From Hydrogenobaculum sp. 3684 (GTDB lineage Bacteria > Aquificota > Aquificia > Aquificales > Aquificaceae): DNA of 64,000 bases. The translations under genes were made by a program, and so were the position numbers. The number at the start of each line of letters is the position of its first letter. Within the stretch, counting starts at the first letter, position 1. Below, piece after piece: positions 5,316 to 57,623 of this stretch. The stretch covers positions 970,664 through 1,034,663 of the forward strand of contig NC_015557.1 of the NCBI RefSeq assembly GCF_000213785.1, written 5' to 3'. The notes beneath the pieces were generated by a model that had not been told where the DNA came from, made no database searches, and saw only the letters and a list, made by a program, of their open reading frames with translations.

Positions 5316-5859
5316 AAAGCATCGCTTTTGCCACTTCTTTTGCCTTTTCTTTTGAAGTTAATTTTTCTAAAAGCCTAAAACCAAAAACCATAGCCGTAGC
5401 TGGACCTCTACTGCTTATAATATTTTCATCTTCTACCACAGATTCTTCTTTGTATAGATGTTCGTTAAACTCAAGCTTCACGGACGGATGAGAGGTAATA
5501 TGCTTATTTTCCACCACACCGGCATTTTTTAGCACCAAAGGACCCGCGCATATAGCGCTAACATATTTTTTCTTAGCATTCATTTGATTTATAAGGTTTT
5601 TTACCTCTTCACTCTTTTTGAGATTTTCAACACCTGTCATACCACCAGGGATTATAATCATATCGAGGTTATCTACATCATTTAGCTCATCTATGGTTAG
5701 ATCAACTTCAATTTTTACATTTCTGGCGCTTGGTATGACTTTATCTTTTACACCTACTATCAACACTTCTACACCGCCTCTTCTTAATATATCTATAGGG
5801 GCTATAGCTTCTACTTCTTCAAAACCAGGTGCCAACAACACAGCTACTTTTGCCATCAT
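5305..5859 (-). CDS. DJ-1/PfpI family protein
   Basis: AICAGP nucleophile-elbow motif and the DJ-1 fold pattern [13 protein letters not shown]. Confidence 0.8.
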
Positions 5860-6176
5860 TCCCTCCTTTTTATATCAAACTTCACTTCTTTTGCCCACTC
5901 AGGTCTTCTGTTTAACCAACTCATCATATTTTCCAAAGACCTTGAATAACAAACCTCACACATCAAAGTCCCATCATCCATTATTTTAGAGTTATCATCA
6001 CAGCATTCTGTTATGTTCCAAAATTCGTAGTTATCGTGAAGTATAAGTTTACCGCAGTTTTTACACTGGTATAGTTTATAGTTTTTGGCTTTTAGTATCT
6101 CATCAAAATTATCGTTGGTAACATCTTGCTCAAATATATTTGATAAAAACTCCAATTGCTCTTTTGAAAATTCCAT
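5856..6176 (-). CDS. hypothetical Cys-rich (zinc-ribbon-like) protein
   Basis: CKNCGK...ECCDD...CEVC cysteine pairs. The 4-nt start/stop overlaps place it in an apparent operon with the ferredoxin and PfpI genes. Confidence 0.4.
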   Translation of the reverse strand: MEFSKEQLEFLSNIFEQDVTNDNFDEILKAKNYKLYQCKNCGKLILHDNYEFWNITECCDDNSKIMDDGTLMCEVCYSRSLENMMSWLNRRPEWAKEVKFDIKRRE

Positions 6177-6186
6177 AAGCGCTATA

Positions 6187-6420
6187 CTAAGCCACTTCTT
6201 CGTGGGCTTCCGCCATCACCATTTTTATGGCATTTCTTTTTAGCATATCAGAGCATACGTATACGCAAAGAGCACATCCTTTGCATCTATTTGTAATCAC
6301 ATAAGCATGATGTTCGTTGTCATCGTACATAAGGGTGTTTGGTTCTGGACAAAAAAGCGTGCATTGTTTGCAGTTGTATTTGCTGCATTCGTCATTTATA
6401 ACCTTAGCTACATAATACAT
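6187..6420 (-). CDS. 4Fe-4S dicluster ferredoxin-like protein
   Basis: CKQCTLFCP and CKGCALCVYVC cluster motifs. Confidence 0.7.
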   Translation of the reverse strand: MYYVAKVINDECSKYNCKQCTLFCPEPNTLMYDDNEHHAYVITNRCKGCALCVYVCSDMLKRNAIKMVMAEAHEEVA

Positions 6421-6590
6421 ATCAAGCCTCCTTTGGAAATGAGATAGATATATATTATAACATTTGTTTGGTGTGTCAATATGTCTTTTGATAGTATAAG
6501 CTTTTTTTGAGCTTTTTATAAGAATATTTTTGCATTGTACCTTTATTTATGGTTTATAATTATATTCTAATACTTATGGAGGTATAGTTT

Positions 6591-33492: not shown

Positions 33493-34569
33493 ATGTTTAG
33501 CAAGAGAATTAAGCTTTTAAAAGCCTACAAAACCGAGACAACACCTTGTCATATAAAACTCTCTTCCAACGAAAACCCTTTTGATTTGGAGGAGTCTGTA
33601 AAGTTAGAGCTTTTAGAGGTTATAAAAAATATAGAGTTCAACAGATATCCAGATCCCCATGCTACAAAACTAAGACAAACCCTATCCAAACTTTATGAGG
33701 TAGAACCAGAAAACATAATGGTTTGCAACGGCTCAGATGAAGCCATCCAATATCTTATGCTTGGTATAGGAGAACTTGATGAAGGGGCACTGATACCGCG
33801 TCCTACGTTTCCCATGTATGAGGTTATAGCAAACGCTTTGGGAAAACCCATATACGATGTGGATTTGGATGAAAATTTTCAAATGAACAAACAAACCCTT
33901 CAAAAAGCCATTGAGAAAAAACCCTCTATCGCTTTTATATCAAATCCAAACAACCCCACCGGAAACTTGTTTAAGGATGAAGATATAGCACTTATAAGAA
34001 AACATACTTTTACAGTCGTAGATGAAGCTTATTATGATTTTTGTGGTAAAACTTATATAAAAGATGCTATAAAAGATGACAACATAGCAGTTATGAGAAC
34101 TTTATCCAAAATAGGCCTTGCTTCTTTGAGAGTTGGGGCTTTGATAGGCACAAAAGAGTTTATAAGAGAAATATCTAAACTAAAGATGCCTTTTAACGTA
34201 TCCTCCACATCCCAAGCTATAGCAGATTACATTGTTTCAAACCACATAGATAACATCAAAAACCAAATAAAAGTTTTAACAGATGAAAGACATAGGCTAA
34301 AAGAAGCCCTTTCTGAGATAAAAGGTATAAAAGTGTATGATTCTTGTGCAAACTTTTTCCTAATAAAAGTAAACGATGCAGATTTTATTCATAAAAGCCT
34401 CATACAAAAAGGTATTTTGACAAGGAACATATCTTACCTTCCAAACCTTGAAAACCATATAAGGATAAGTATCGGTAAAAAAGAAGAAAACGACGCTCTT
34501 ATAAACGCTTTAAAAGAAATAGCTCAACAAGTCTACCACGATAACAAGTCTACCACGGTCTATGAGTGA
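33493..34569 (+). CDS. hisC: histidinol-phosphate aminotransferase
   Basis: LSSNENPF N-terminal motif; class-II aminotransferase pattern; PLP Lys region (TLSK). Confidence 0.8.
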
Positions 34570-37449: not shown

Positions 37450-37635
37450 ATGAAGAAGTTCTTATCAATGCTTTTGGCAGGTATGTTTGCAGTATCACCA
37501 ATGGTGATGGCAGCAGAGAAGAAAATGGAACACAAACCAGTGCACAAGAAGATGGTGCACAAAAAATGGCACAAGAAGTGGCATAAAAAAGTAGCCCACA
37601 AAAAATGGCACAAAAAAGTAGAGCACAAGAAGTGA
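37450..37635 (+). CDS. small secreted His/Lys-rich repeat protein
   Basis: AGGAGG RBS 8 nt upstream; signal peptide MKKFLSMLLAGMFAVSPMVMA; six HKK(W/V) repeats; followed by a terminator hairpin. Confidence 0.55.
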   Translation: MKKFLSMLLAGMFAVSPMVMAAEKKMEHKPVHKKMVHKKWHKKWHKKVAHKKWHKKVEHKK

Positions 37636-37655
37636 TATAAATCCTCTCATTTTCT

Positions 37656-44886: not shown

Positions 44887-44933
44887 TGCACAAGTTCAAT
44901 AAGTCGTAGACATATAAACCGTGGTAGACTTAT
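44887..44933. repeat. Direct repeat A1 (TGCACAAGTTCAATA...CCGTGGTAGACTT); partner at 48779-48823
   Basis: About 85% identity by eye to the left end of A2. It lies between the rpsT start and the helicase-nuclease gene stop. Confidence 0.55.
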
Positions 44934-44942
44934 AGAGCTTAG

Positions 44943-47900
44943 TTAAGTGGTTAAGTTTTCTACTAGTTCCTTTTTAATTCTTTCTAACTCTTCTCTCATA
45001 ATAGGATTGCTTGAATCTAACCATCCGTTAATATACCACCTATAATATGGTGTATGAATTACTTTCCACCCAGCTCTTTTTAACCTTTCTGCTCTTTCTA
45101 TGTGCCAATCAGCATAATTAATACTTTGTAAACCAGATTGTTCATAGTGATAAGGTCCATCAGCTTCCAATGCAATAAATTTTTTGTTTTTTCTATTATG
45201 CAATACAAAATCCAATCTATAACCACAAGTTTCATATTGATTGTATATTCTTATATCTGAGTGGTAATTTTTATTTATCTCGTTTACTATATCTTTTAAA
45301 TAATTATAAACAAATTCCTCTAATTCTGATTCAAATTTAGATTTATCTAGGTGAGCATTTTCTGTATCTATATTTTTTCTATCTACATTCTCTATACTTT
45401 CAAAGTGTACTATGTATTCCTTAGTCAAATGGAAGTTTTCAGGAATTCCACCATAAACTAAAAACGTAAAATATTTTGCTCTACTTGTAGCAACATTAAA
45501 TCTATTTTTATTTTCATAATGGTTTTTACTTCTTGTGCATGTCTCATCTAAAGCAAGTGATATAATCATTACATCTTTCTCATGACCCTGAAACTCTTCT
45601 GGTGTTCCTATAAGTATATCTTCATAGCCATATTCATAACTTCTAATCTTCAACCTCACCACTTGATCCCTTGTAAATGATAATACCCCTATTGAAAAAT
45701 TTTCTGGAACATAATCTGGTAAAACAACGTCCTCATATCTTCTATTTCTTTTTAGACTTTCAATAATTTTAAAAACTTCATCTATTTCTTCTTCAACAAC
45801 ATTAAATTTTAAATGCCTTTTACCGTTAACTTTGATACTTTTAAATGCTTTATCTTCTAAATTGGGATTTTTTGTCATAATATAAATCTTATTTTCATAA
45901 AATTTCTTTGAAGTAAAGCTTGCCGAAGGATAAACTGACCTAAAATGTTCGTTTAACATACTTTGAGCTTCTGCACTTATGTAGTTAAAAGATTCTCTGT
46001 TCGAATCTTTATCAGAATCATCTGAAACTAAAAAATCTAAAATAGAAGATTTTGTTAATATTAAATCTCTTCTTTTTGCTTGTTCATAATCTATCTTATT
46101 TGGTTTAAATTTTTCCCATGTATACCTATCAAGTTTTCCACCAATAGAAAATCCTAAACCTGTAGCCTCAAGGCTTAGCTGTTTATGGTCTCCAACTACA
46201 CAAATATGCTTACCTCTATAAAATACCGGAATTATTTGAGCTAAATTTACCTGAGAGGATTCATCAACTACAACGATATCAAATAAGTTTGGCTTCATAG
46301 GTAGTATTCTGTCTACGTTTGGAATATCTACAATCCAAATATTAAAAATTTCCAAAATATTTTCATAATTAACTTTTTCTTGTACATTCTTTAATAAACG
46401 ATCTTTTACCCAATGAAAAACATTCTTAAATTTGGCTAAATTATTTTTATATTTTTGTGCATTTTCATAAATCTTAAGTAATAGCTTTAAATTTACTAAC
46501 TCTTTTGAAACTTGCATTAATTGGCTTTTTATATGGTTTATCCGATTGACTAAATTCTGTATATCTCCAAATGATAAAATCTTACTTTTTGTATCTTGAA
46601 TTTTATTATAATCATAAATTATTTTTATCAGAGAATCTAAGAATAAAGATTGGCTAATATTTAAAAATTTCTTAAGCTCAAGCTCTTTGTGATAGTTTTT
46701 TAAAAATCTATAAAGAAATACTTTTCTTAACTGCAAAAGTCTTGTATTTCCATATCCTTCTAATACTTTAAAAGTATTTTTATGAAGATTTAGCTCTTCA
46801 ATTTCTATGCATTTTAAGTGATTGAGGTAATTTTTGATATTAAAAAATCCTCCCTCAAAAAACTTGACTTCATCATTCAAATCTTTTCTTATAGAGTAAT
46901 ATTTATTTTCCAATGCAAGATATTTTTTATAATTTTTCTCTAATTCTTTTAACTCATTAATGTAATCTATTGCTCTTTCTTCCAAGTATCTTAATCTTTC
47001 TTTTAAATCGTCTTTTATATTTAATCTCTCAACAGCTCCTACATTTTCCTTCATTTTTCTTTTGTGCTCATCATAGTAATAAATAAACGGAATAATGTTA
47101 TTTTTTTCTAAAATTTCTGTTAACTTTTCAAACAGAACCTTAATAGCCGGTGGTTTTTGAGAAACGATTAGAATTTTTTTATCAAGTAAAATAGACAATA
47201 AAGCCAATGCAGTTATAGTATGGCTTTTACCAGTTCCCGGAGGTCCTTGTATATAAGAAATTTCGTAATTTATAGCATTCTCAAGAGCTTTTTTCTGACT
47301 TTCTGAAAGTTGCAAAGGAGTTAAATATTCATAGTCTTCAAGTTTAAAATTGTCAACTTTCTCTAAGTTAATCTTTTCTTCAAAGGCTGATACAAAAAGT
47401 TTTTTTAGTGTGCTGTTTTTAAAATCTCCTTCTTCATTTATTTCTTGAATTAACAATTCTAAAGATTTGTAAGTTGATAGTTCAGAAGGAAAGTTATTGA
47501 CAAAAAAATAATTTCTATCTAAATAAACGCTTTCTTTTTTATAGAATATCTCTTTTACATTTTTGTTTTCTATTGTAATGTCTTGTTCAATTTTAATGTT
47601 AAATGCTTCAGGAATTTTCAAAATAGCTTCTTTTGCAAGAGTCTTTAAACCAAGCAAATTATTTGTTTCTTCAAGTTTTTCTTCTAAGGTTTTTATAAAG
47701 TATACTGCTTGTTCTAATTGGATAGAGTTTTCGTTATCTTCTAAATTTTCAGATATGTTATTAAAAAGATCATAATTTATATATGAGTTTTCAAAATAAA
47801 TAGATATACTTTTACCTTCCTTATCTTCTTCTATATCTAAGTTAACTATAAAAATAGGTCCAAAGGCTTTATTGGTATAACTTCCATTCTCTTTTATTAC

Positions 47901-48206
47901 ATATTTTAATAATCCAATACCTAAAAATATTGCTTGATTTGAATTATTAATTTCTATAAGCTTTTGCCTTAAGTACCAATATAATTTTCCATCTACTTCT
48001 TTATTAGCTCTATAAATTTCTCCTATGTCAATTCTATAAATTTCTCCTATGTCTAAGTTTTTATCAAAGTAGAAAAAAGTATTTTCAAGATTTTTATTTC
48101 TTGGTTTAGATTTAACAAGATTTCCAAAATCAACTCCAACACCGATTTTTCTACTTAACTCTTTTAAATATCCAAGATAATCTAAGATATATTGTTTATC
48201 ATTCAT
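44943..48206 (-). CDS. SF1 (Upf1/DNA2-like) helicase fused to a C-terminal DUF559/Vsr-like PD-(D/E)xK endonuclease; N-terminal ~300 aa of unknown function
   Basis: Walker A GPPGTGKS, motif II VVVDESSQ, VVGDHKQL and NVATSRAK (motif VI). The C-terminus YRLDFVLHN...IALEADGPYHY...DWHIERAERLKRAGWKVIH fits the DUF559 pattern. Confidence 0.7.
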   Translation of the reverse strand: MNDKQYILDYLGYLKELSRKIGVGVDFGNLVKSKPRNKNLENTFFYFDKNLDIGEIYRIDIGEIYRANKEVDGKLYWYLRQKLIEINNSNQAIFLGIGLLKYVIKENGSYTNKAFGPIFIVNLDIEEDKEGKSISIYFENSYINYDLFNNISENLEDNENSIQLEQAVYFIKTLEEKLEETNNLLGLKTLAKEAILKIPEAFNIKIEQDITIENKNVKEIFYKKESVYLDRNYFFVNNFPSELSTYKSLELLIQEINEEGDFKNSTLKKLFVSAFEEKINLEKVDNFKLEDYEYLTPLQLSESQKKALENAINYEISYIQGPPGTGKSHTITALALLSILLDKKILIVSQKPPAIKVLFEKLTEILEKNNIIPFIYYYDEHKRKMKENVGAVERLNIKDDLKERLRYLEERAIDYINELKELEKNYKKYLALENKYYSIRKDLNDEVKFFEGGFFNIKNYLNHLKCIEIEELNLHKNTFKVLEGYGNTRLLQLRKVFLYRFLKNYHKELELKKFLNISQSLFLDSLIKIIYDYNKIQDTKSKILSFGDIQNLVNRINHIKSQLMQVSKELVNLKLLLKIYENAQKYKNNLAKFKNVFHWVKDRLLKNVQEKVNYENILEIFNIWIVDIPNVDRILPMKPNLFDIVVVDESSQVNLAQIIPVFYRGKHICVVGDHKQLSLEATGLGFSIGGKLDRYTWEKFKPNKIDYEQAKRRDLILTKSSILDFLVSDDSDKDSNRESFNYISAEAQSMLNEHFRSVYPSASFTSKKFYENKIYIMTKNPNLEDKAFKSIKVNGKRHLKFNVVEEEIDEVFKIIESLKRNRRYEDVVLPDYVPENFSIGVLSFTRDQVVRLKIRSYEYGYEDILIGTPEEFQGHEKDVMIISLALDETCTRSKNHYENKNRFNVATSRAKYFTFLVYGGIPENFHLTKEYIVHFESIENVDRKNIDTENAHLDKSKFESELEEFVYNYLKDIVNEINKNYHSDIRIYNQYETCGYRLDFVLHNRKNKKFIALEADGPYHYEQSGLQSINYADWHIERAERLKRAGWKVIHTPYYRWYINGWLDSSNPIMREELERIKKELVENLTT
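48009..48053. repeat. 24-bp tandem duplication (tctataaatttctcctatgtc) inside the helicase-nuclease CDS
   Basis: Read directly. It encodes IGEIYRID/IGEIYRAN. Confidence 0.85.
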
Positions 48207-48604
48207 CTTAAATCTTCCTCTGTTAATGGCTCTTTAAGAAGTTTTATAATATGCTCAATTTTTTCCTCAAGTTCTTTGATTTCATTTTCATGTCGCTCTA
48301 TCTTTTTATCTAGATCTAAAAACGCTTGGTTCATTGCGGTTTGAATCATATTGTTGTGTTCTTTGATTTCATTTTCATGTCGCTCTATCTTTTTATCTAG
48401 ATCTAAAAACGCTTGGTTCATTGCGGTTTGAATCATATTGTTGTGATTTGATACCTCTTTGTGATGATTTGACATCTCTTCTAGTATTAAACTTTTGTCT
48501 TTCTCAAGTTTCAAGTAAGTAGTAATATTTAAAGCAATTGAAATTAATAATAAAATCAAGATAACAATTAATATTATTTCAGTAGGCATATTCACCTCCT
48601 TCAC
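48203..48604 (-). CDS. membrane-anchored coiled-coil protein containing a perfect 29-aa duplication
   Basis: N-terminal TM helix; heptad-rich E/K sequence. Its start overlaps the stop of the helicase-nuclease gene by 4 nt. Confidence 0.5.
   Translation of the reverse strand: MKEVNMPTEIILIVILILLLISIALNITTYLKLEKDKSLILEEMSNHHKEVSNHNNMIQTAMNQAFLDLDKKIERHENEIKEHNNMIQTAMNQAFLDLDKKIERHENEIKELEEKIEHIIKLLKEPLTEEDLR
48274..48445. repeat. Perfect 87-bp tandem duplication within the coiled-coil gene
   Basis: Read directly: two identical 87-bp units (HNNMIQTAMNQAFLDLDKKIERHENEIKE x2). Confidence 0.9.
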
Positions 48605-48778
48605 ACCTTTAAAAATCTGATCTGCTTATTGTGAAAGTAAGAAATCAATTTCAAAGTCTCATAAGGTTTTCCCATAACTTCACTCCTTTTATTCCTATCT
48701 GTTTATTTCAACTACTTTTAAAACTTATAATTAATTTACTCTCCTATGACTTATTATATCATATTTATTTATAAAAAA

Positions 48779-48895
48779 TTGCACAAGTTCAATACATCGC
48801 AGACATAAGCCGTGGCAGACTTGTGGATTGTGGCAGACTTGTAGGGCGTGGTATACTTGTTTATCGTGGTATACTTGTGGATTGTGGCAGACTTG
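48779..48895. repeat. Direct repeat A2: a 32-bp segment shared with A1, followed by five 18-bp-phased iteron-like units (core GTGGYAKACTTGT at 48811, 48829, 48847, 48865, 48883)
   Basis: Read directly. It lies in the divergent gap between the coiled-coil gene and the Rpn gene. Confidence 0.65.
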
Positions 48896-49003
48896 TCGTG
48901 ATATTATTTTCTTTTAAGAAAACACTTATCTCAAATATGACAAACCTCTCTTTCTATGCTTTATATAGACTTATACAAAGAGTGATATAATTTTACTTAA
49001 GTT

Positions 49004-49987
49004 ATGGATCAAGAGAATAAACATCCTCAGAAGATAGATATCACAATAAGAGATATAATTCCATCTTTTTCAGAAAGCGCATTTATAAGAATGATAACAG
49101 GTAAAAACTACAAACGTGTTTTGAACTCAGTGTTTCCAAGCACAAAAGAAAGAAGAGTAGATTTACTTTTAGAGCTTGAAGATAACTCAATACTACATAT
49201 AAAATTTCAAACAAGTAATGACAAAGACATGCTTTACAGAATGCTTGAGTATTATAGCCTTATAAAGTCGCATTTTAAAGACAGGTCTCTTTATCAAAAG
49301 CTTATTTATCTTGGTGAAGATGAATGCAATATGGAAAATTCTTTTGAAGATATTGGTATTTCTTACAAATACGAGATAATAGATATAAAGTATATTCAAT
49401 GCGATAGTCTAATAGAGTCTAACAATATAGCAGATATAACTTTTGCATTTCTATGCAATGTAAAAGATAGAGAAAAACTATTCAAAAAAGCTGTAGCTAA
49501 ATTAAAAGAGCTGCCAAGCAAAGAAAGGTCTGATTGGTTTAAGAAGATATTGACGCTTTTAAGCATAAGACCTAAATTAAGTAAAGAGATTATAGATTTT
49601 TACGAGGAGGCACCTATGCTTGAAATAAGCCTAACTATAGACGACATAAAAGAGTGGCCTGTGGTGGGAAAGCTTGTTAAGGAATTAGAACAAGAAGCCA
49701 TCTTAAAAGGAATGCTTGAAGGTGAGTTAAAAGGTAAATTAAAAGGAAAACTTGAAGGAAGGCTTGAAGGAAAGATTGAAGGAAAACTTGAAGGAAGGCT
49801 TGAAGAGAAATTAGAGGATATAAAACGTGTGATATTGACAAGATTTGGGATATTGCCAGAAGATATTGAAAATAGGCTATCTAAGATAGAGGACCTTCAA
49901 AAGCTAAATGTTATATTTGATAAATCTATTACTGCCAATAGCATTGATGAGATAGAAAAGCTGATATCTGAAACTACCAAGCGATAA
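49004..49987 (+). CDS. Rpn-family recombination-promoting nuclease / putative transposase (PD-(D/E)xK, YhgA/transposase_31-like)
   Basis: D...ELEDNSILHIKFQ (E-x-K) core. The C-terminal EGxLKG heptad repeats and the conserved tail FGILPEDIENRL are shared with the 52167-53114 paralog. Confidence 0.6.
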   Translation: MDQENKHPQKIDITIRDIIPSFSESAFIRMITGKNYKRVLNSVFPSTKERRVDLLLELEDNSILHIKFQTSNDKDMLYRMLEYYSLIKSHFKDRSLYQKLIYLGEDECNMENSFEDIGISYKYEIIDIKYIQCDSLIESNNIADITFAFLCNVKDREKLFKKAVAKLKELPSKERSDWFKKILTLLSIRPKLSKEIIDFYEEAPMLEISLTIDDIKEWPVVGKLVKELEQEAILKGMLEGELKGKLKGKLEGRLEGKIEGKLEGRLEEKLEDIKRVILTRFGILPEDIENRLSKIEDLQKLNVIFDKSITANSIDEIEKLISETTKR

Positions 49988-50044
49988 TACTTTAGTACAG
50001 GTTAAATACATCATAAACACATAAATCTTGCTATAATTGGGAGA

Positions 50045-50093
50045 GTTGAATACTTGTTTATCGTGGTATACTTGTGGGGCATGGCAGACTTGT
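50045..50093. repeat. Repeat A3: three 18-bp-phased iteron-like units (cores at 50045, 50063, 50081) downstream of the Rpn gene
   Basis: A 28-bp stretch (ATACTTGTTTATCGTGGTATACTTGTGG) is identical to part of A2. Confidence 0.6.
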
Positions 50094-50248
50094 AAACTAT
50101 CTTAGCAAGCGTTCTATAACCTAAAAAGCTCTTTTCAGTCTCTTGTAGGTACATAAAAAAGCCAAACCAAAAAAGCGTAAAGGTCATCCCCTTAGGAAAC
50201 ACCAATCACCATTCAGATAGCTTTCTTATTATACTAATGGTTTTTTCT

Positions 50249-50848
50249 TTATGGTAATCCTATGCCTAACTGCTTTACCAAAACATTACATACTCTCTTT
50301 GGTAAGAATTTGTTTTTATGTGGCGGATTATTATCCGTCTTATGTTCTTCTACAAGTTTATATGGGAAGTAGGCAGTTTCATAGTTGCAATGATATTCTG
50401 GATCATGATATGTCCCACCATCTATACCTAAAGCTTTAGTCCAGAATCCATCTTTATAGAATCCTACCTTGACTGGATACCTTTTAACATTCCAAGGATG
50501 TGAAAAATCTGAATCAACATATGAACCTATGTCTTCCGCAGCCTTAGTTTGTGGTTTACCATTTACACATTCCACATAAAATACTAAATAATCGACGTCT
50601 GCTTTCATTAATACCAATGCTTTATTACCTTTTGCTATATACTTTAAAAGTTTTATACTGACATCTTTATCAAGCTGCAATTTACCATTATGAAGCACGA
50701 TTTCTTTGTTGCGATTATAAGAGACATAATAAAAATTTGACATGTCTTTTGTGCTAACCCCATAATCATGGTTATACGGGTTAAAGCACAACCCACTGCC
50801 AAAAGCCAAGCTTGTTAAAGCCAATGTTGCAACTAACTTCTTTAACAT
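50249..50848 (-). CDS. hypothetical secreted protein
   Basis: Signal peptide MLKKLVATLALTSLAFGSG; no motif. Confidence 0.45.
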   Translation of the reverse strand: MLKKLVATLALTSLAFGSGLCFNPYNHDYGVSTKDMSNFYYVSYNRNKEIVLHNGKLQLDKDVSIKLLKYIAKGNKALVLMKADVDYLVFYVECVNGKPQTKAAEDIGSYVDSDFSHPWNVKRYPVKVGFYKDGFWTKALGIDGGTYHDPEYHCNYETAYFPYKLVEEHKTDNNPPHKNKFLPKRVCNVLVKQLGIGLP

Positions 50849-52166: not shown

Positions 52167-53114
52167 TTATTGAATCTCTTCAATTTTAGTGGCAAGTATA
52201 ACTTTCTTGAAGATATCGTTTAAAGCCTGTATATCATCTGTGTTTTCTATTTTTTCTTCAAAATCTTTTGGTAGTAACCCAAACTTGATAAGGACAGCAC
52301 TCTTGATGTCATCTTTTTTAGCCTTAATTAATCCTTTTTGTAATCCTTCTTGTAATCCTTCTTGTTTGCCTTCCATTTTCCACTTTTCTGTTAGTGTCAT
52401 AACTTTTTCATCACCTCCTGTTAGTTCTTTTAAAATATTTTCAACCTCTTCAGCACTGTCTTTCACAGATACAATATAATCAAGCGTTAAAAATATGCAA
52501 TGAGTCGTTTCTATATAATCATGGGTTTTGATATAATCTGCTATAAGCTCAAATACCTTTATAAAGTCTTTTATGCTATCAAATATATGTTTCATTGCAA
52601 GCAAGGCCCACTGTGTGCAAAGATCTTTATGTGTTTCACTTATAATATCATCATCTGATATTTTATTTAGATCTATAAGTATATAGTTTAGCTTAGATGT
52701 GTATTTTTCTAATTTGGTATTTTTAACAATAGGTAAACATGTTGGCATATTCCATTCACCTTTTCCATGATAAAAAACGATGTTGATAATAGGAGGGTAA
52801 TACTCTTTTTCTTTTATGGCTTCTTCCCAGATAGCACTGTTGTAGTATGAAAGCTGAATAGGTAGTTCTTTATCAAGATAAGATTTGTGCTCAAGTACTA
52901 CCCGTATATATGCATCTTGATCTTCTACTTTGCAGCTAAAAAGTAAATCAAGCATGAACTTTTGAGATTTAGAAGAAAACTTTTCTGTATTAACGGGTGT
53001 TATAGAATGTATATCCTGTGCTATATCCTCTGCAAAGATATCAAGAAGCATCTTTAATCTTTTGGGATCTGAAAATATCTGCTTGAAAAATGTATCGTGA
53101 GGTTGTATATCCAT
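52167..53114 (-). CDS. Rpn-family recombination-promoting nuclease / putative transposase (TIGR01784-like)
   Basis: N-terminus MDIQPHDTFFKQIFSDPKRL is typical of YhgA-like proteins; EGLQEGLQKGL repeats in the C-terminus. Confidence 0.7.
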   Translation of the reverse strand: MDIQPHDTFFKQIFSDPKRLKMLLDIFAEDIAQDIHSITPVNTEKFSSKSQKFMLDLLFSCKVEDQDAYIRVVLEHKSYLDKELPIQLSYYNSAIWEEAIKEKEYYPPIINIVFYHGKGEWNMPTCLPIVKNTKLEKYTSKLNYILIDLNKISDDDIISETHKDLCTQWALLAMKHIFDSIKDFIKVFELIADYIKTHDYIETTHCIFLTLDYIVSVKDSAEEVENILKELTGGDEKVMTLTEKWKMEGKQEGLQEGLQKGLIKAKKDDIKSAVLIKFGLLPKDFEEKIENTDDIQALNDIFKKVILATKIEEIQ

Positions 53115-53224: not shown

Positions 53225-53721
53225 AAGTAAATCCCCTATAGGTACAAACAAAACTATTGATAGAGCGTATATTAGACGATATAGAAGATTGTTTCAATCC
53301 CCTATAGGTACAAGCAAAACTCTTCAAGTCGGCGTCACGCCGATATTCGAGGAGGAGTTTCAATCCCCTATAGGTACAAGCAAAACTTAAACAATGATGG
53401 TGTAAAGTCAAACTCTTTAATCAAAGTTTCAATCCCCTATAGGTACAAACAAAACAAATTAGGGAAATAATGAATCAAATATTAAAATAGTTTCAATCCC
53501 CTATAGGTACAAACAAAACTTCCTTCTTGTGTGTCGCTTTCTTGTGTGGTATCATTGTTTCAATCCCCTACAGGTACAAACAAAACACATTGACATCAAA
53601 ACTAATAAAGTGCCGATTATGGAGTTTCAATCCCCTATAGGTACAAACAAAACAAGATTAAAAATTGGGGCTTTGTGATAAAAAACAAACTGTTTCAATC
53701 CCCTATAGGTACAAACAAAAC
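53225..53721 (-). CRISPR. CRISPR array: eight 30-bp repeats (GTTTCAATCCCCTATAGGTACAAACAAAAC), seven spacers of 34-39 bp; the orientation (leader at the 53722 side) is inferred
   Basis: Repeats at 53225 (degenerate 5' end), 53291, 53357, 53426, 53490, 53557, 53624 and 53692. Point variants are present in repeats 2 and 3 (A>G) and repeat 6 (T>C). The degenerate terminal repeat is at the low-coordinate end. The reverse complement ends in ...ATTGAAAC. Confidence 0.9.
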
Positions 53722-56814: not shown

Positions 56815-57623
56815 AACACTCTCTCTATAAATATACCAACAAGTATGCCACGGTCTAAAAACATCCAAATTATTGCACCAATAGACAAAAATGGTCCAAA
56901 GGGTATATAGTATTGCATATTTTTATTTTTTATAATGGTAGGTATGCTTACCAAAAGCCCTATAACTGAACCAAAAAACATAGCACCAAGCACCATCCAG
57001 ATACCACCAAAGGCTCCTATCATTGCCAAAAGTTTTATATCACCTATGCCAAGACCTTCCATCTTCCTAACCTTAAGATAAATATAGTATATTAAAAATG
57101 GAATTAAACCACCAAACAAAATCCCAAGTATTGAGCTTTTAATATCAACAAAACCATAATTACTAAGAGAAAATAAAAGTCCAAACACTATGCCAGCGTA
57201 GTTAAAACTATCAAGTAGGATAAACCAATCTAAATCTATAAAAGATTGTACTATAAGGATTGATCCAAAAAGTAGAGCTTCTAATGTTTTTACAGCATCT
57301 TTTATATTTAGCACAGATAAATTTTCATTGTTTTTTATATAAAAAGCATAAACACAAAGGGCAAAATAAAACCCGGTAAGGGCTTCTACTATAGGATACC
57401 TCATAGATATTTTATTTTTGCAAGCACTGCATCTACCTCTCAAGAAAATGTAAGATAATATGGGTATGTTTTCATAAGGTTTTATCTTATGTCCACAATG
57501 AGGGCACTTGGAATTTGGATAAACGACAGACTCTCCCCTTGGAAGTCTATATATCAGCACGTTATAAAGGCTTCCAAAGATAGTACCAAGCAAAAAGAAT
57601 GTAAGTAAGATTAGGATTGTCAT
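56805..57623 (-). CDS. pilD: type IV prepilin peptidase (A24 family)
   Basis: CPHCGHKIKPYENIPILSY...CSACKNKI zinc-binding motif and a polytopic membrane pattern. Confidence 0.8.
   Translation of the reverse strand: MTILILLTFFLLGTIFGSLYNVLIYRLPRGESVVYPNSKCPHCGHKIKPYENIPILSYIFLRGRCSACKNKISMRYPIVEALTGFYFALCVYAFYIKNNENLSVLNIKDAVKTLEALLFGSILIVQSFIDLDWFILLDSFNYAGIVFGLLFSLSNYGFVDIKSSILGILFGGLIPFLIYYIYLKVRKMEGLGIGDIKLLAMIGAFGGIWMVLGAMFFGSVIGLLVSIPTIIKNKNMQYYIPFGPFLSIGAIIWMFLDRGILVGIFIERVLWT

Follow-up and report, generated by a model that had tools for sequence, protein, structure and literature searches.

Hydrogenobaculum sp. 3684 carries short direct arrays of an 18-bp unit on either side of a gene encoding a 327-aa Rpn-like protein, between rpsT and carB in a 64,000-nt stretch of its genome (contig NC_015557.1, positions 970,664 to 1,034,663, forward strand; hereafter the window, in whose coordinates positions are given). 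These arrays belong to a repeat family that is dispersed over many loci of the genus, occurs inside genes, and is gained and lost in whole units. Beside the Rpn-like gene they stand in the context of an IS481-like insertion sequence (IS) and its derivatives of the MITE class (miniature inverted-repeat transposable elements), and in a series of strains that differ in their cassettes the breakpoints fall inside arrays.

In the explanation that we consider probable, dispersed repeats and IS ends together form joints, with the Rpn-like gene as cargo. The arrays would be local members of a genus-wide interspersed 17/18-bp tandem repeat family in Hydrogenobaculum, each placed just inside the terminal inverted repeat (TIR), termed the L-box, of a decayed IS481-like IS or a MITE. 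Three such modules of TIR plus array (A1, A2 and A3), all in the same orientation, would mark the boundaries between rpsT, a cassette with the helicase-nuclease, the Rpn-like gene and the remainder of a hypervariable defence island, which also contains a second Rpn gene and a clustered regularly interspaced short palindromic repeat (CRISPR) array. Cassettes would be gained or lost by recombination with breakpoints inside the arrays: either direct arrays would recombine and delete what lies between them, or a circle with a single array would insert in the Campbell manner. On this view the repeats do not belong to the Rpn-like gene, which would be hitch-hiking cargo.

A dispersed 17/18-bp repeat family

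Units of the family occupy five places in the window:

44921-44933, plus strand: A1 unit, GTGGTAGACTTAT, one unit of the 18-bp family with 1 mismatch
48812-48896, plus strand: array A2, five units in exact 18-bp phase (variants CAG, CAG, TAT, TAT, CAG), within a MITE termed E
50045-50093, plus strand: array A3, three units in 18-bp phase
34527-34556, minus strand: two units with a 17-bp step in the last hisC codons, overlapping the start of hxlR
56839-56851, minus strand: one in-frame unit near the C-terminus of the prepilin peptidase PilD (FLDRGILVGIFIE; encodes RGILVG)

The initial annotation of this DNA had described five phased 18-bp units upstream of the Rpn-like gene and three downstream, all direct, together with a diverged unit in A1, and this description stands. 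In a pattern search, the A2 units start at 48812, 48830, 48848, 48866 and 48884, each with 0 mismatches to GTGGYAKACTTGT, and those of A3 at 50045, 50063 and 50081 with 2, 0 and 1 mismatches, respectively; Tandem Repeats Finder (TRF) reports A2 as 48811-48896, with a period of 18 and 4.8 copies. All units of A1, A2 and A3 lie in direct orientation on the plus strand. The hisC and pilD copies, both on the minus strand and both intragenic, are additions to the earlier list. Within the window the motif is far denser than chance: 18 matches with at most 2 mismatches were found, compared with 3.48 +/- 2.0 in 100 dinucleotide-preserving shuffles, of which the largest count was 10 and none (0/100) reached 18. 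A 2-mismatch match at 53546 is spurious, being a spacer of the CRISPR array.

Each unit consists of a 14-bp core, CGTGGYAKACTTGT (C-GTGG-Y-A-K-ACTTGT), and a variable spacer of 4-5 nt. A scan for two adjacent units, covering one genome per species, returned 40 loci, all but two of them from four Hydrogenobaculum/Aquificaceae metagenome-assembled genomes (MAGs); one of the two exceptions, labelled Nanopusillus, is an orthologue of this window. These loci contain about 50 arrays of 2-8 units each, which have a step of 17 or 18 bp and flanks that are unrelated, and several lie at contig ends, as expected of a multi-copy repeat. Among 182 unique units, 11-12 core positions are near-invariant, one is strictly Y (C/T) and one strictly K (G/T); the latter two combine independently (CG 71, TG 44, CT 37, TT 25), and the spacer is free to vary (AAACC, GAATC, GGTGC, AGGGC and TATC are examples). 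Where arrays occupy corresponding sites across genomes, the flanks are ~24% diverged and the 11 fixed core positions deviate in 4 of 396 instances (1%), a figure that carries an ascertainment bias in that the loci were found by demanding two perfect cores. Such a pattern of core conservation resembles that of a putative protein recognition site. Of the suggestion in the initial annotation that the arrays are bound by a protein, this recognition-site-like pattern is the part that holds up; no binding protein was identified.

One spacer and period variant prevails across several loci of a genome (AATC with a 17-bp step in one MAG, TATC with a 17-bp step in another), and units at dispersed sites therefore show concerted evolution. 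In the MAG SRP041649_co1_4, arrays of (AATC-GTGGCAGACTTGT)n, homogeneous and stepped at 17 bp, end four contigs (L010, L014, L023 and L025). Three different inner flanks are found among these contigs, and thus at least three loci in this genome hold arrays whose length and uniformity suffice to break assembly.

The motif is non-palindromic, and the arrays are without secondary structure: for either strand, shuffled sequence folds better (z +0.9 and +1.1). A structured RNA or hairpin element was rejected on the grounds that Rfam finds only a tRNA in the window and that the arrays fold poorly. Terminator prediction gave nothing, and the promoter-like signal was not significant. In the searched literature on Hydrogenobaculum repeats and genomes, only CRISPR descriptions turned up, an absence that is no proof of novelty; the family is apparently undescribed.

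Fifteen of the 50 arrays (~30%) overlap long open reading frames (ORFs) in frame, always with an 18-bp step. These intragenic arrays occur in both orientations and in five of the six frames, with the translations RGILVx, TSLPRx, (D/N)KSATx, LQVYHD and AWYTCI, and the core is free of stop codons in 5/6 frames. Hosts confirmed by Pfam include DnaG primase, DnaE (Pol III alpha), the anaerobic ribonucleotide reductase NrdD and Dam methylase, as well as a DinG-like helicase, YkuD (L,D-transpeptidase), a TsaB-like protein, a DHH phosphoesterase and a secretin; PilD and HisC were likewise confirmed as hosts of in-frame units. The inserts are situated in linkers, at termini or after the signal peptide. 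In CoaX of one species, for example, a 36-aa insert is present that is missing from nine other Hydrogenobaculum CoaX proteins, that of H. acidophilum included.

The turnover of the arrays is precise to the unit. An all-against-all comparison of the loci provided pairs of filled and empty sites in DNA that is otherwise 92-99% identical. L047 and L080 differ by an exact 18-bp block, as do L061 and L058, and L050 differs from both L061 and L058 by a 54-bp block of three identical units inside a transposase remnant; blocks of 17 bp and 36 bp occur too, with further examples within IS copies. Inserted blocks start in the spacer and stop at ACTTGT, give or take one base, with a junction homology of 0-3 nt. 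In no case does the spacer repeat flanking sequence; unit insertions are therefore without target-site duplication (TSD), and a reading of the spacer as a TSD or excision footprint was rejected on the evidence of ten filled/empty pairs. At hisC/hxlR, near-identical strains form an allelic series with 0, a partial (~0.7), 2 (17-bp step) or 2 (18-bp step) units. Furthermore, the IS481-like pseudogene L007 contains five single units in both orientations, and its reading frame is still open.

IS481-like ends and the cassette series

A box of ~32 nt, TGCACAAGTTCAATACATCG.AGACA.ATAA.CC, directly precedes the first unit at all three local copies. As a leader common to all arrays this box was rejected, in that it accompanies only a minority of them and is the TIR of an IS481-like element. 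This L-box (TGTAYAAGTTCACTACATCGTGAACACATA) recurs at more than 15 loci, where the flanks diverge directly outside TGTAY and are unique to each copy. In L007 and L061, it sits at the end of a transposase gene with HTH_32, rve and rve_3 domains, beside the C-terminus of the protein. A second box, the R-box (TGTATAAGTTCAGATAGACTGTGAACAC), lies upstream of the transposase N-terminus, which matches LZ_Tnp_IS481 (L081 and L044). Since the one adjoins the transposase C-terminus and the other precedes the N-terminus, the L-box is the right inverted repeat (IRR) and the R-box the left inverted repeat (IRL) of an element that is IS481-like (rve). MITE E consists of short derivatives with one of the boxes at either end, and these exist with and without units (L050, L074 and L098), and a MITE E copy also marks a variable junction beside purE, with two units inserted in strain Y04AAS1. 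In the window, the remnants of these elements are as follows:

44887-44920, plus strand: L-box copy of A1, an IRR-type TIR remnant directly beside the start of rpsT, with a unique flank outside TGCAC
48780-48811, plus strand: L-box copy of A2, the left TIR of a diverged MITE E that spans 48780-48977
48897-48977, plus strand: right part of MITE E, a subterminal segment termed b (cgtgatattattttcttttaagaaaac...) followed by a diverged R-box ending ...GACTTATACA
49993-50027, plus strand: diverged L-box copy of A3, starting 6 nt after the stop codon of the Rpn-like gene
50028-50044, plus strand: degenerate unit of A3, between its L-box and the three-unit array
50094-50205, minus strand: T segment, a remnant of the IS481-like transposase C-terminus (…FLGYRTLAKIV…; compare the intact RPHCSLGYRTPAEVA in L061)

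The right part of MITE E, defined by comparison with L050, L065, L098 and L074, ends 27 bp before the ATG of the Rpn-like gene, and its diverged R-box agrees with the IRL at 13/19 positions in the window and at 14/19 in Y04AAS1. No clear TSD for this diverged copy was seen at 48780 or 48977. Around the Rpn-like gene, the L-boxes to left and right share one orientation instead of being inverted, and a TIR element bounded by them was rejected for this reason. Nor do the units mimic the TIRs of the IS: a position weight matrix built from 209 units scores the TIRs at background (P 0.14-0.88), and a resemblance of the unit to the R-box noticed by eye was dropped, as it needs a 1-nt gap.

Separately, at L074/L076 (~450-1570), an IS200/IS605-type element (Y1 TnpA plus TnpB) sits exactly at the outer tip of an IS481-like MITE (…CTTATACAT|cagtttcg…), which hints that the tip of the IS481-like TIR may be the target sequence of that element.

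A look-up of the S20 protein of the window gave ten genomic contexts, including CP004347.1 and Y04AAS1 (CP001130.1). The former, also from Hydrogenobaculum sp., is identical to the window over the stretch compared. The rpsT-carB interval is hypervariable, and an L-box with an array of 1, 3 or 6 units stands beside rpsT in all ten strains examined. Four arrangements illustrate the series:

L109-L112: rpsT, then L-box, 3 units and T, then the secreted-protein gene (no cassette)
Y04AAS1: rpsT, then L-box, 6 units and the MITE right part, then the Rpn-like gene (94% identical), then a second L-box (L'), 4 units and T
Window: the Y04AAS1 arrangement plus a 3.9-kb helicase-nuclease cassette with its own L-box, placed after the first unit
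L105 (a Yellowstone metagenome strain): the window arrangement with the Rpn-like gene split by an insertion of ~1.1 kb

In these comparisons, sequences cease to match the window at 44931-44934, within the A1 unit, and homology resumes at 50052, inside array A3, in cassette-free strains or at 48752 in Y04AAS1; the breakpoints are within arrays. Each extra cassette is accompanied by one extra module of L-box plus array, and the T segment comes after the array in every strain. The unit counts of orthologous arrays also differ, with four units for A2 in L037 and four for A3 in Y04AAS1 and L105. The block of repeat, Rpn-like gene and repeat, which the initial annotation had proposed as a mobile unit, is absent from L109-L112 and present in Y04AAS1 and the window. 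The proposal thus survives insofar as the block is present or absent between strains with breakpoints in the arrays, and fails in that the cassette without an Rpn gene behaves alike.

On the L105 insertion (5381-6480 equivalent, between window positions 49410 and 49545) lie a gene with Sel1 repeats and one for a paralog of the 199-aa secreted protein that is encoded beside A3.

The Rpn-like gene and the competing explanations

Three features concern the Rpn family in the window:

49004-49987, plus strand: cassette 2 gene, 327 aa, a divergent Rpn-family (DUF4351-type) PD-(D/E)XK nuclease or toxin
49703-49810, plus strand: 12-bp coding repeats, which encode strain-variable 4-aa (LEGK-type) repeats of the Rpn C-terminal region
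52167-53114, minus strand: canonical Rpn paralog (PF04754), an in-window negative control that is free of 18-bp units to a distance of 300 bp

The Rpn-like identity initially given to the 327-aa product is borne out by several family features, albeit with a family-model match that is below threshold (TIGR01784, E 4.3e-7, 30 bits, cutoff 52.1) and with no Pfam match, PF04754 included. The lines of evidence that place it in the Rpn family are the following. Homologues at 25-32% identity carry Rpn family or DUF4351 annotation, and the protein aligns with the PF04754 paralog of the window (phmmer E 4e-12). D53, E67 and Q69 are near-invariant in an alignment of 24 relatives and correspond to D63, E82 and Q84 of RpnA, the residues of the D...E-x-Q motif. 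An AlphaFold model (predicted local distance difference test score 79) has an N-terminal core that resembles the nuclease cores of EndoMS/NucS, Cas4-type proteins and Card1, with a probability of 0.9-1.0 and weak E-values of ~0.01; a search of PDB sequences with an Rpn-like profile gave no match. Finally, the LEGK-type repeats of the C-terminal helix number 8 (window), 7 (P0001) and 5 (Y04AAS1), and strain-variable 4-aa C-terminal repeats are a hallmark of the Rpn toxin/RpnS antitoxin region (Zhong et al., PMC10400941). Codon 67 of the window copy (49202-49204) encodes K (HIKFQT), and the orthologues of Y04AAS1, L105 and P0001 read HIEFQT. This E67K change replaces the predicted catalytic glutamate of the E-x-Q motif, and the window copy may be an inactivated toxin.

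It is unlikely that the Rpn-like gene and its arrays form an autonomous mobile or homing unit, in which the Rpn-family nuclease would recognise the 14-bp core or cleave it, and in which the cassette would move, and units be seeded at other sites, through repair or through joining independent of RecA. Consistent with such a unit, RpnA promotes RecA-independent recombination and the ends it leaves can prime a polymerase (PMC5350276), and the array-Rpn-array block is present or absent between strains as a whole. An association of arrays with Rpn paralogs, as raised in the initial annotation, is also visible. At array-centred loci, 4/6 Rpn-like ORFs are within 400 bp of an array that lies upstream on the same strand, and among 62 Rpn-centred metagenome loci, 16/27 motif sites fall in the 300-bp flanks of Rpn-like genes versus 3.4 expected (~5-fold), an enrichment inflated by locus redundancy and a bias toward intergenic DNA. 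However, most of the 62 Rpn-like loci, including the closest homologues at 53-56% identity, have no array within reach, and neither does the second paralog of the window, and the helicase cassette is bracketed identically without an Rpn gene. Terminal repeats specific to Rpn genes are thus not borne out, and the idea that these genes own such repeats is removed. Moreover, nearly every array close to an Rpn gene is of the L-box (MITE) type, and IS/MITE copies often abut Rpn stop codons, so that the association runs through the array-carrying IS481-like MITE and is best explained by co-residence or hitch-hiking with IS/MITE copies in defence islands. Also at odds with a homing unit are E67K in the predicted catalytic motif of the window copy, the lack of sequence specificity of RpnA in vitro (PMC5350276) and the direct, not inverted, orientation of the arrays. 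The related idea that the arrays are the transposon ends of an Rpn (Transposase_31) gene was rejected: arrays and L-boxes are direct, no TSD was seen, and the window paralog and most of the 62 Rpn-like loci are free of arrays.

Two further explanations leave the Rpn-like gene aside or make it a passenger of a replicon. The arrays could be host-selected clusters of binding sites for a chromosomal protein (nucleoid, segregation, uptake-type or regulator), with the proximity to Rpn incidental, which we regard as rather improbable. The core has the restricted degeneracy of a recognition site and is kept while the flanks diverge, the motif is non-palindromic and unstructured, and the array beside rpsT is kept in all ten strains. 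However, copy number and even presence differ between near-identical strains, and units face both ways, enter essential genes only in single species, and are piled up in IS pseudogenes; this looks like tolerated insertion, not positioned function. Known uptake or organiser motifs, furthermore, occur as single dispersed copies and not in tandem, as these arrays do. There is very little chance that the arrays served a plasmid or phage replicon, now integrated, as its iterons or partition site, with the Rpn-like gene as part of what is left of it. Although the tandem direct repeats, their iteron-like length of 17-18 bp and the mobile-looking neighbour genes would suit such a replicon, no Rep, Par or integrase gene is nearby; the neighbours are instead a helicase-nuclease, a coiled-coil ORF, the Rpn-like gene and a secreted protein. 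No counterpart of the arrays was found in viral contigs, PLSDB plasmids or phage genomes, the dozens of chromosomal copies at 40 or more loci in five Hydrogenobaculum/Aquificaceae genomes include intragenic ones, and an 18-bp period is off the helical repeat. The Rep-type iterons suggested at first are, as an integrated-replicon reading, effectively refuted.

The joint of dispersed repeat and IS end, with the Rpn-like gene as cargo, also has evidence to contend with. The same pattern would arise if, after DNA uptake, homologous recombination in the conserved flanks (rpsT and T) replaced one allele by another and the arrays played no active part. The last unit before T reads GTGG versus ATGG between strains with and without cassettes, and therefore no allele is recently derived from another. 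Identical stretches within the arrays are ~14-20 bp, which is marginal for RecA recombination, and adjacent L-box copies, which are 75-89% identical, could contribute to recombination. Neither a circular intermediate nor a recombinase or binding protein was identified, and the intragenic arrays come mostly from MAG contigs, the only finished-genome examples being hisC and pilD. It is the arrays, we infer, and not the TIR remnants next to them that recombine.

A bolder extension of the repeat-family description, possible but doubtful, is that the 17/18-bp unit is the smallest mobile DNA known in bacteria, with pieces of one unit or of n units that share a fixed ...ACTTGT end being captured at breaks. 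The pieces would be made by a sequence-specific nuclease that cuts once per unit or by a templated repeat-synthesising polymerase, and would be captured at genomic breaks anywhere without target duplication. Their in-frame survival in essential genes would follow from a core that is stop-free in five of six frames, and the resulting arrays would act as portable joints that shuffle defence cassettes (Rpn, helicase-nuclease) between strains.

Known repeat systems and the rest of the island

The repeat is unlike the catalogued repetitive extragenic palindromic (REP) sequences, MITEs, Rickettsia palindromic elements (RPE), mycobacterial interspersed repetitive units (MIRU) and short tandemly repeated repetitive (STRR) sequences in its unit size, its lack of structure and target duplication, and its tandem growth in essential genes. 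In MIRU-variable number tandem repeat loci, one unit is repeated in tandem at tens of dispersed loci, with strain-variable copy number and in tight operon gaps, and the unit frames can overlap the ends of neighbouring genes (PMC3184786). The Hydrogenobaculum units likewise occupy dispersed loci, vary in copy number and overlap gene ends at hisC/hxlR. However, they contain no internal inverted repeats, and their filled sites lack tetranucleotide direct repeats. Cyanobacterial STRR sequences are tandem arrays of a 7-bp heptamer at dispersed loci. Compared with both (MIRU 40-100 bp, STRR 7 bp), the present unit measures 17/18 bp, its arrays lie inside essential coding sequences in five frames, and single units insert alone. 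RPE colonise genes in frame and leave them intact, mostly in linkers and termini (PMC3184786), and Hydrogenobaculum units also sit in frame in protein genes without destroying them. Unlike RPE and MITEs, which are 100-150 bp long, palindromic or TIR-bounded, present once per site and usually flanked by a TSD, the 18-bp unit is unstructured, tandem and without a TSD. A stable hairpin or imperfect palindrome, as in REP sequences and bacterial interspersed mosaic elements, RPE or attC, is absent from the arrays.

The local arrays share with the IS481 family their L-box and R-box, the TIRs of an rve/LZ_Tnp_IS481 element whose short TIR-bounded derivatives recur. In contrast to a canonical IS481 element, the 18-bp units are not part of the IS, as the unit-free copies L074 and L061 illustrate, and most arrays in the genus have no L-box. 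Plasmid and phage iterons are similar in being tandem direct repeats (17-22 bp class) with a conserved core, presumably protein-bound, and differ in that the Hydrogenobaculum arrays have no initiator gene, origin context or plasmid/phage homologue and include dispersed, intragenic copies. Minimal mobile elements and defence-island cassette exchange offer a further parallel, in that alternative cassettes lie between conserved flanks, each with one repeat module more; unlike exchange by an att site or simple homology, the module here is a TIR remnant plus an 18-bp array and no integrase is present. CRISPR arrays have repeats of 23-50 bp and unique spacers of similar length, whereas the present unit has a 14-bp core and a spacer of 4-5 nt, and the CRISPR repeat of the window is unrelated to it. 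Like DNA uptake sequences and uptake signal sequences, the motif is short, non-palindromic, over-represented, found on both strands and tolerated in coding frames; these, however, exist as hundreds to thousands of single scattered copies and have a cognate competence receptor, whereas the density in the window extrapolates to ~50-100 sites, mostly tandem.

If this description holds, Hydrogenobaculum has an unstructured 18-bp unit that would be gained and lost exactly, without target duplication, and with a recognition-like core kept across species, which would raise the mechanistic question of what makes or inserts an 18-bp piece of DNA. The units would be a natural source of hexapeptide insertions and could provide strain-typing markers for hot-spring populations, and the rpsT-carB interval would be a concrete case of non-autonomous rpn defence genes moving between joints of repeat and IS end.

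The remaining genes of the first cassette are:

44943-48206, minus strand: 1087-aa superfamily 1 helicase with a C-terminal restriction endonuclease-like domain, by sequence a defence-type helicase-nuclease
48203-48604, minus strand: coiled-coil ORF of 133 aa

The helicase has domain matches to AAA_11, AAA_12 and MTES_1575 and weak similarity to the ProA, Hhe and PLuB helicases, and its gene is found neither in Y04AAS1 nor in cassette-free strains. The 133-aa ORF contains a perfect 87-bp tandem duplication (48271-48444, 100% identity), in frame and adding 29 residues, which looks like a very recent event.

Unit-free MITE E fragments adjoin the canonical Rpn paralog at 52167-53114, and directly upstream of this gene lies the CRISPR array (53225-53721), with 8 repeats (GTTTCAATCCCCTATAGGTACAAACAAAAC, period 64-69), for which TRF gave no call. 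Elsewhere in the genus, at L045 (3272-6291) and L055, Rpn-family genes stand in tandem clusters of two or three in which canonical and 327-aa types alternate, flanked by fragments of Rpn 3' ends; this arrangement suggests that local recombination may be frequent at tandem Rpn clusters.

Beside A3, positions 50249-50848 encode a secreted protein of ~199 aa with orthologues in L106 (7894-8481) and L109 (1841-2440). It is 37-50% identical between strains, compared with 96% DNA identity of the flanking genes, and is a hypervariable surface or secreted protein. It was rejected as a transposase, as it belongs to a divergent secreted protein family without transposase similarity. Another small secreted protein, made of His/Lys/Trp-rich repeats (…KKMVHKKWHKKWHKKVAHKKWHKKVEHKK*) and followed by a hairpin, is encoded on the plus strand at ~37452-37640, where the 12/27-bp tandem repeats at 37519-37641 are its coding repeats.

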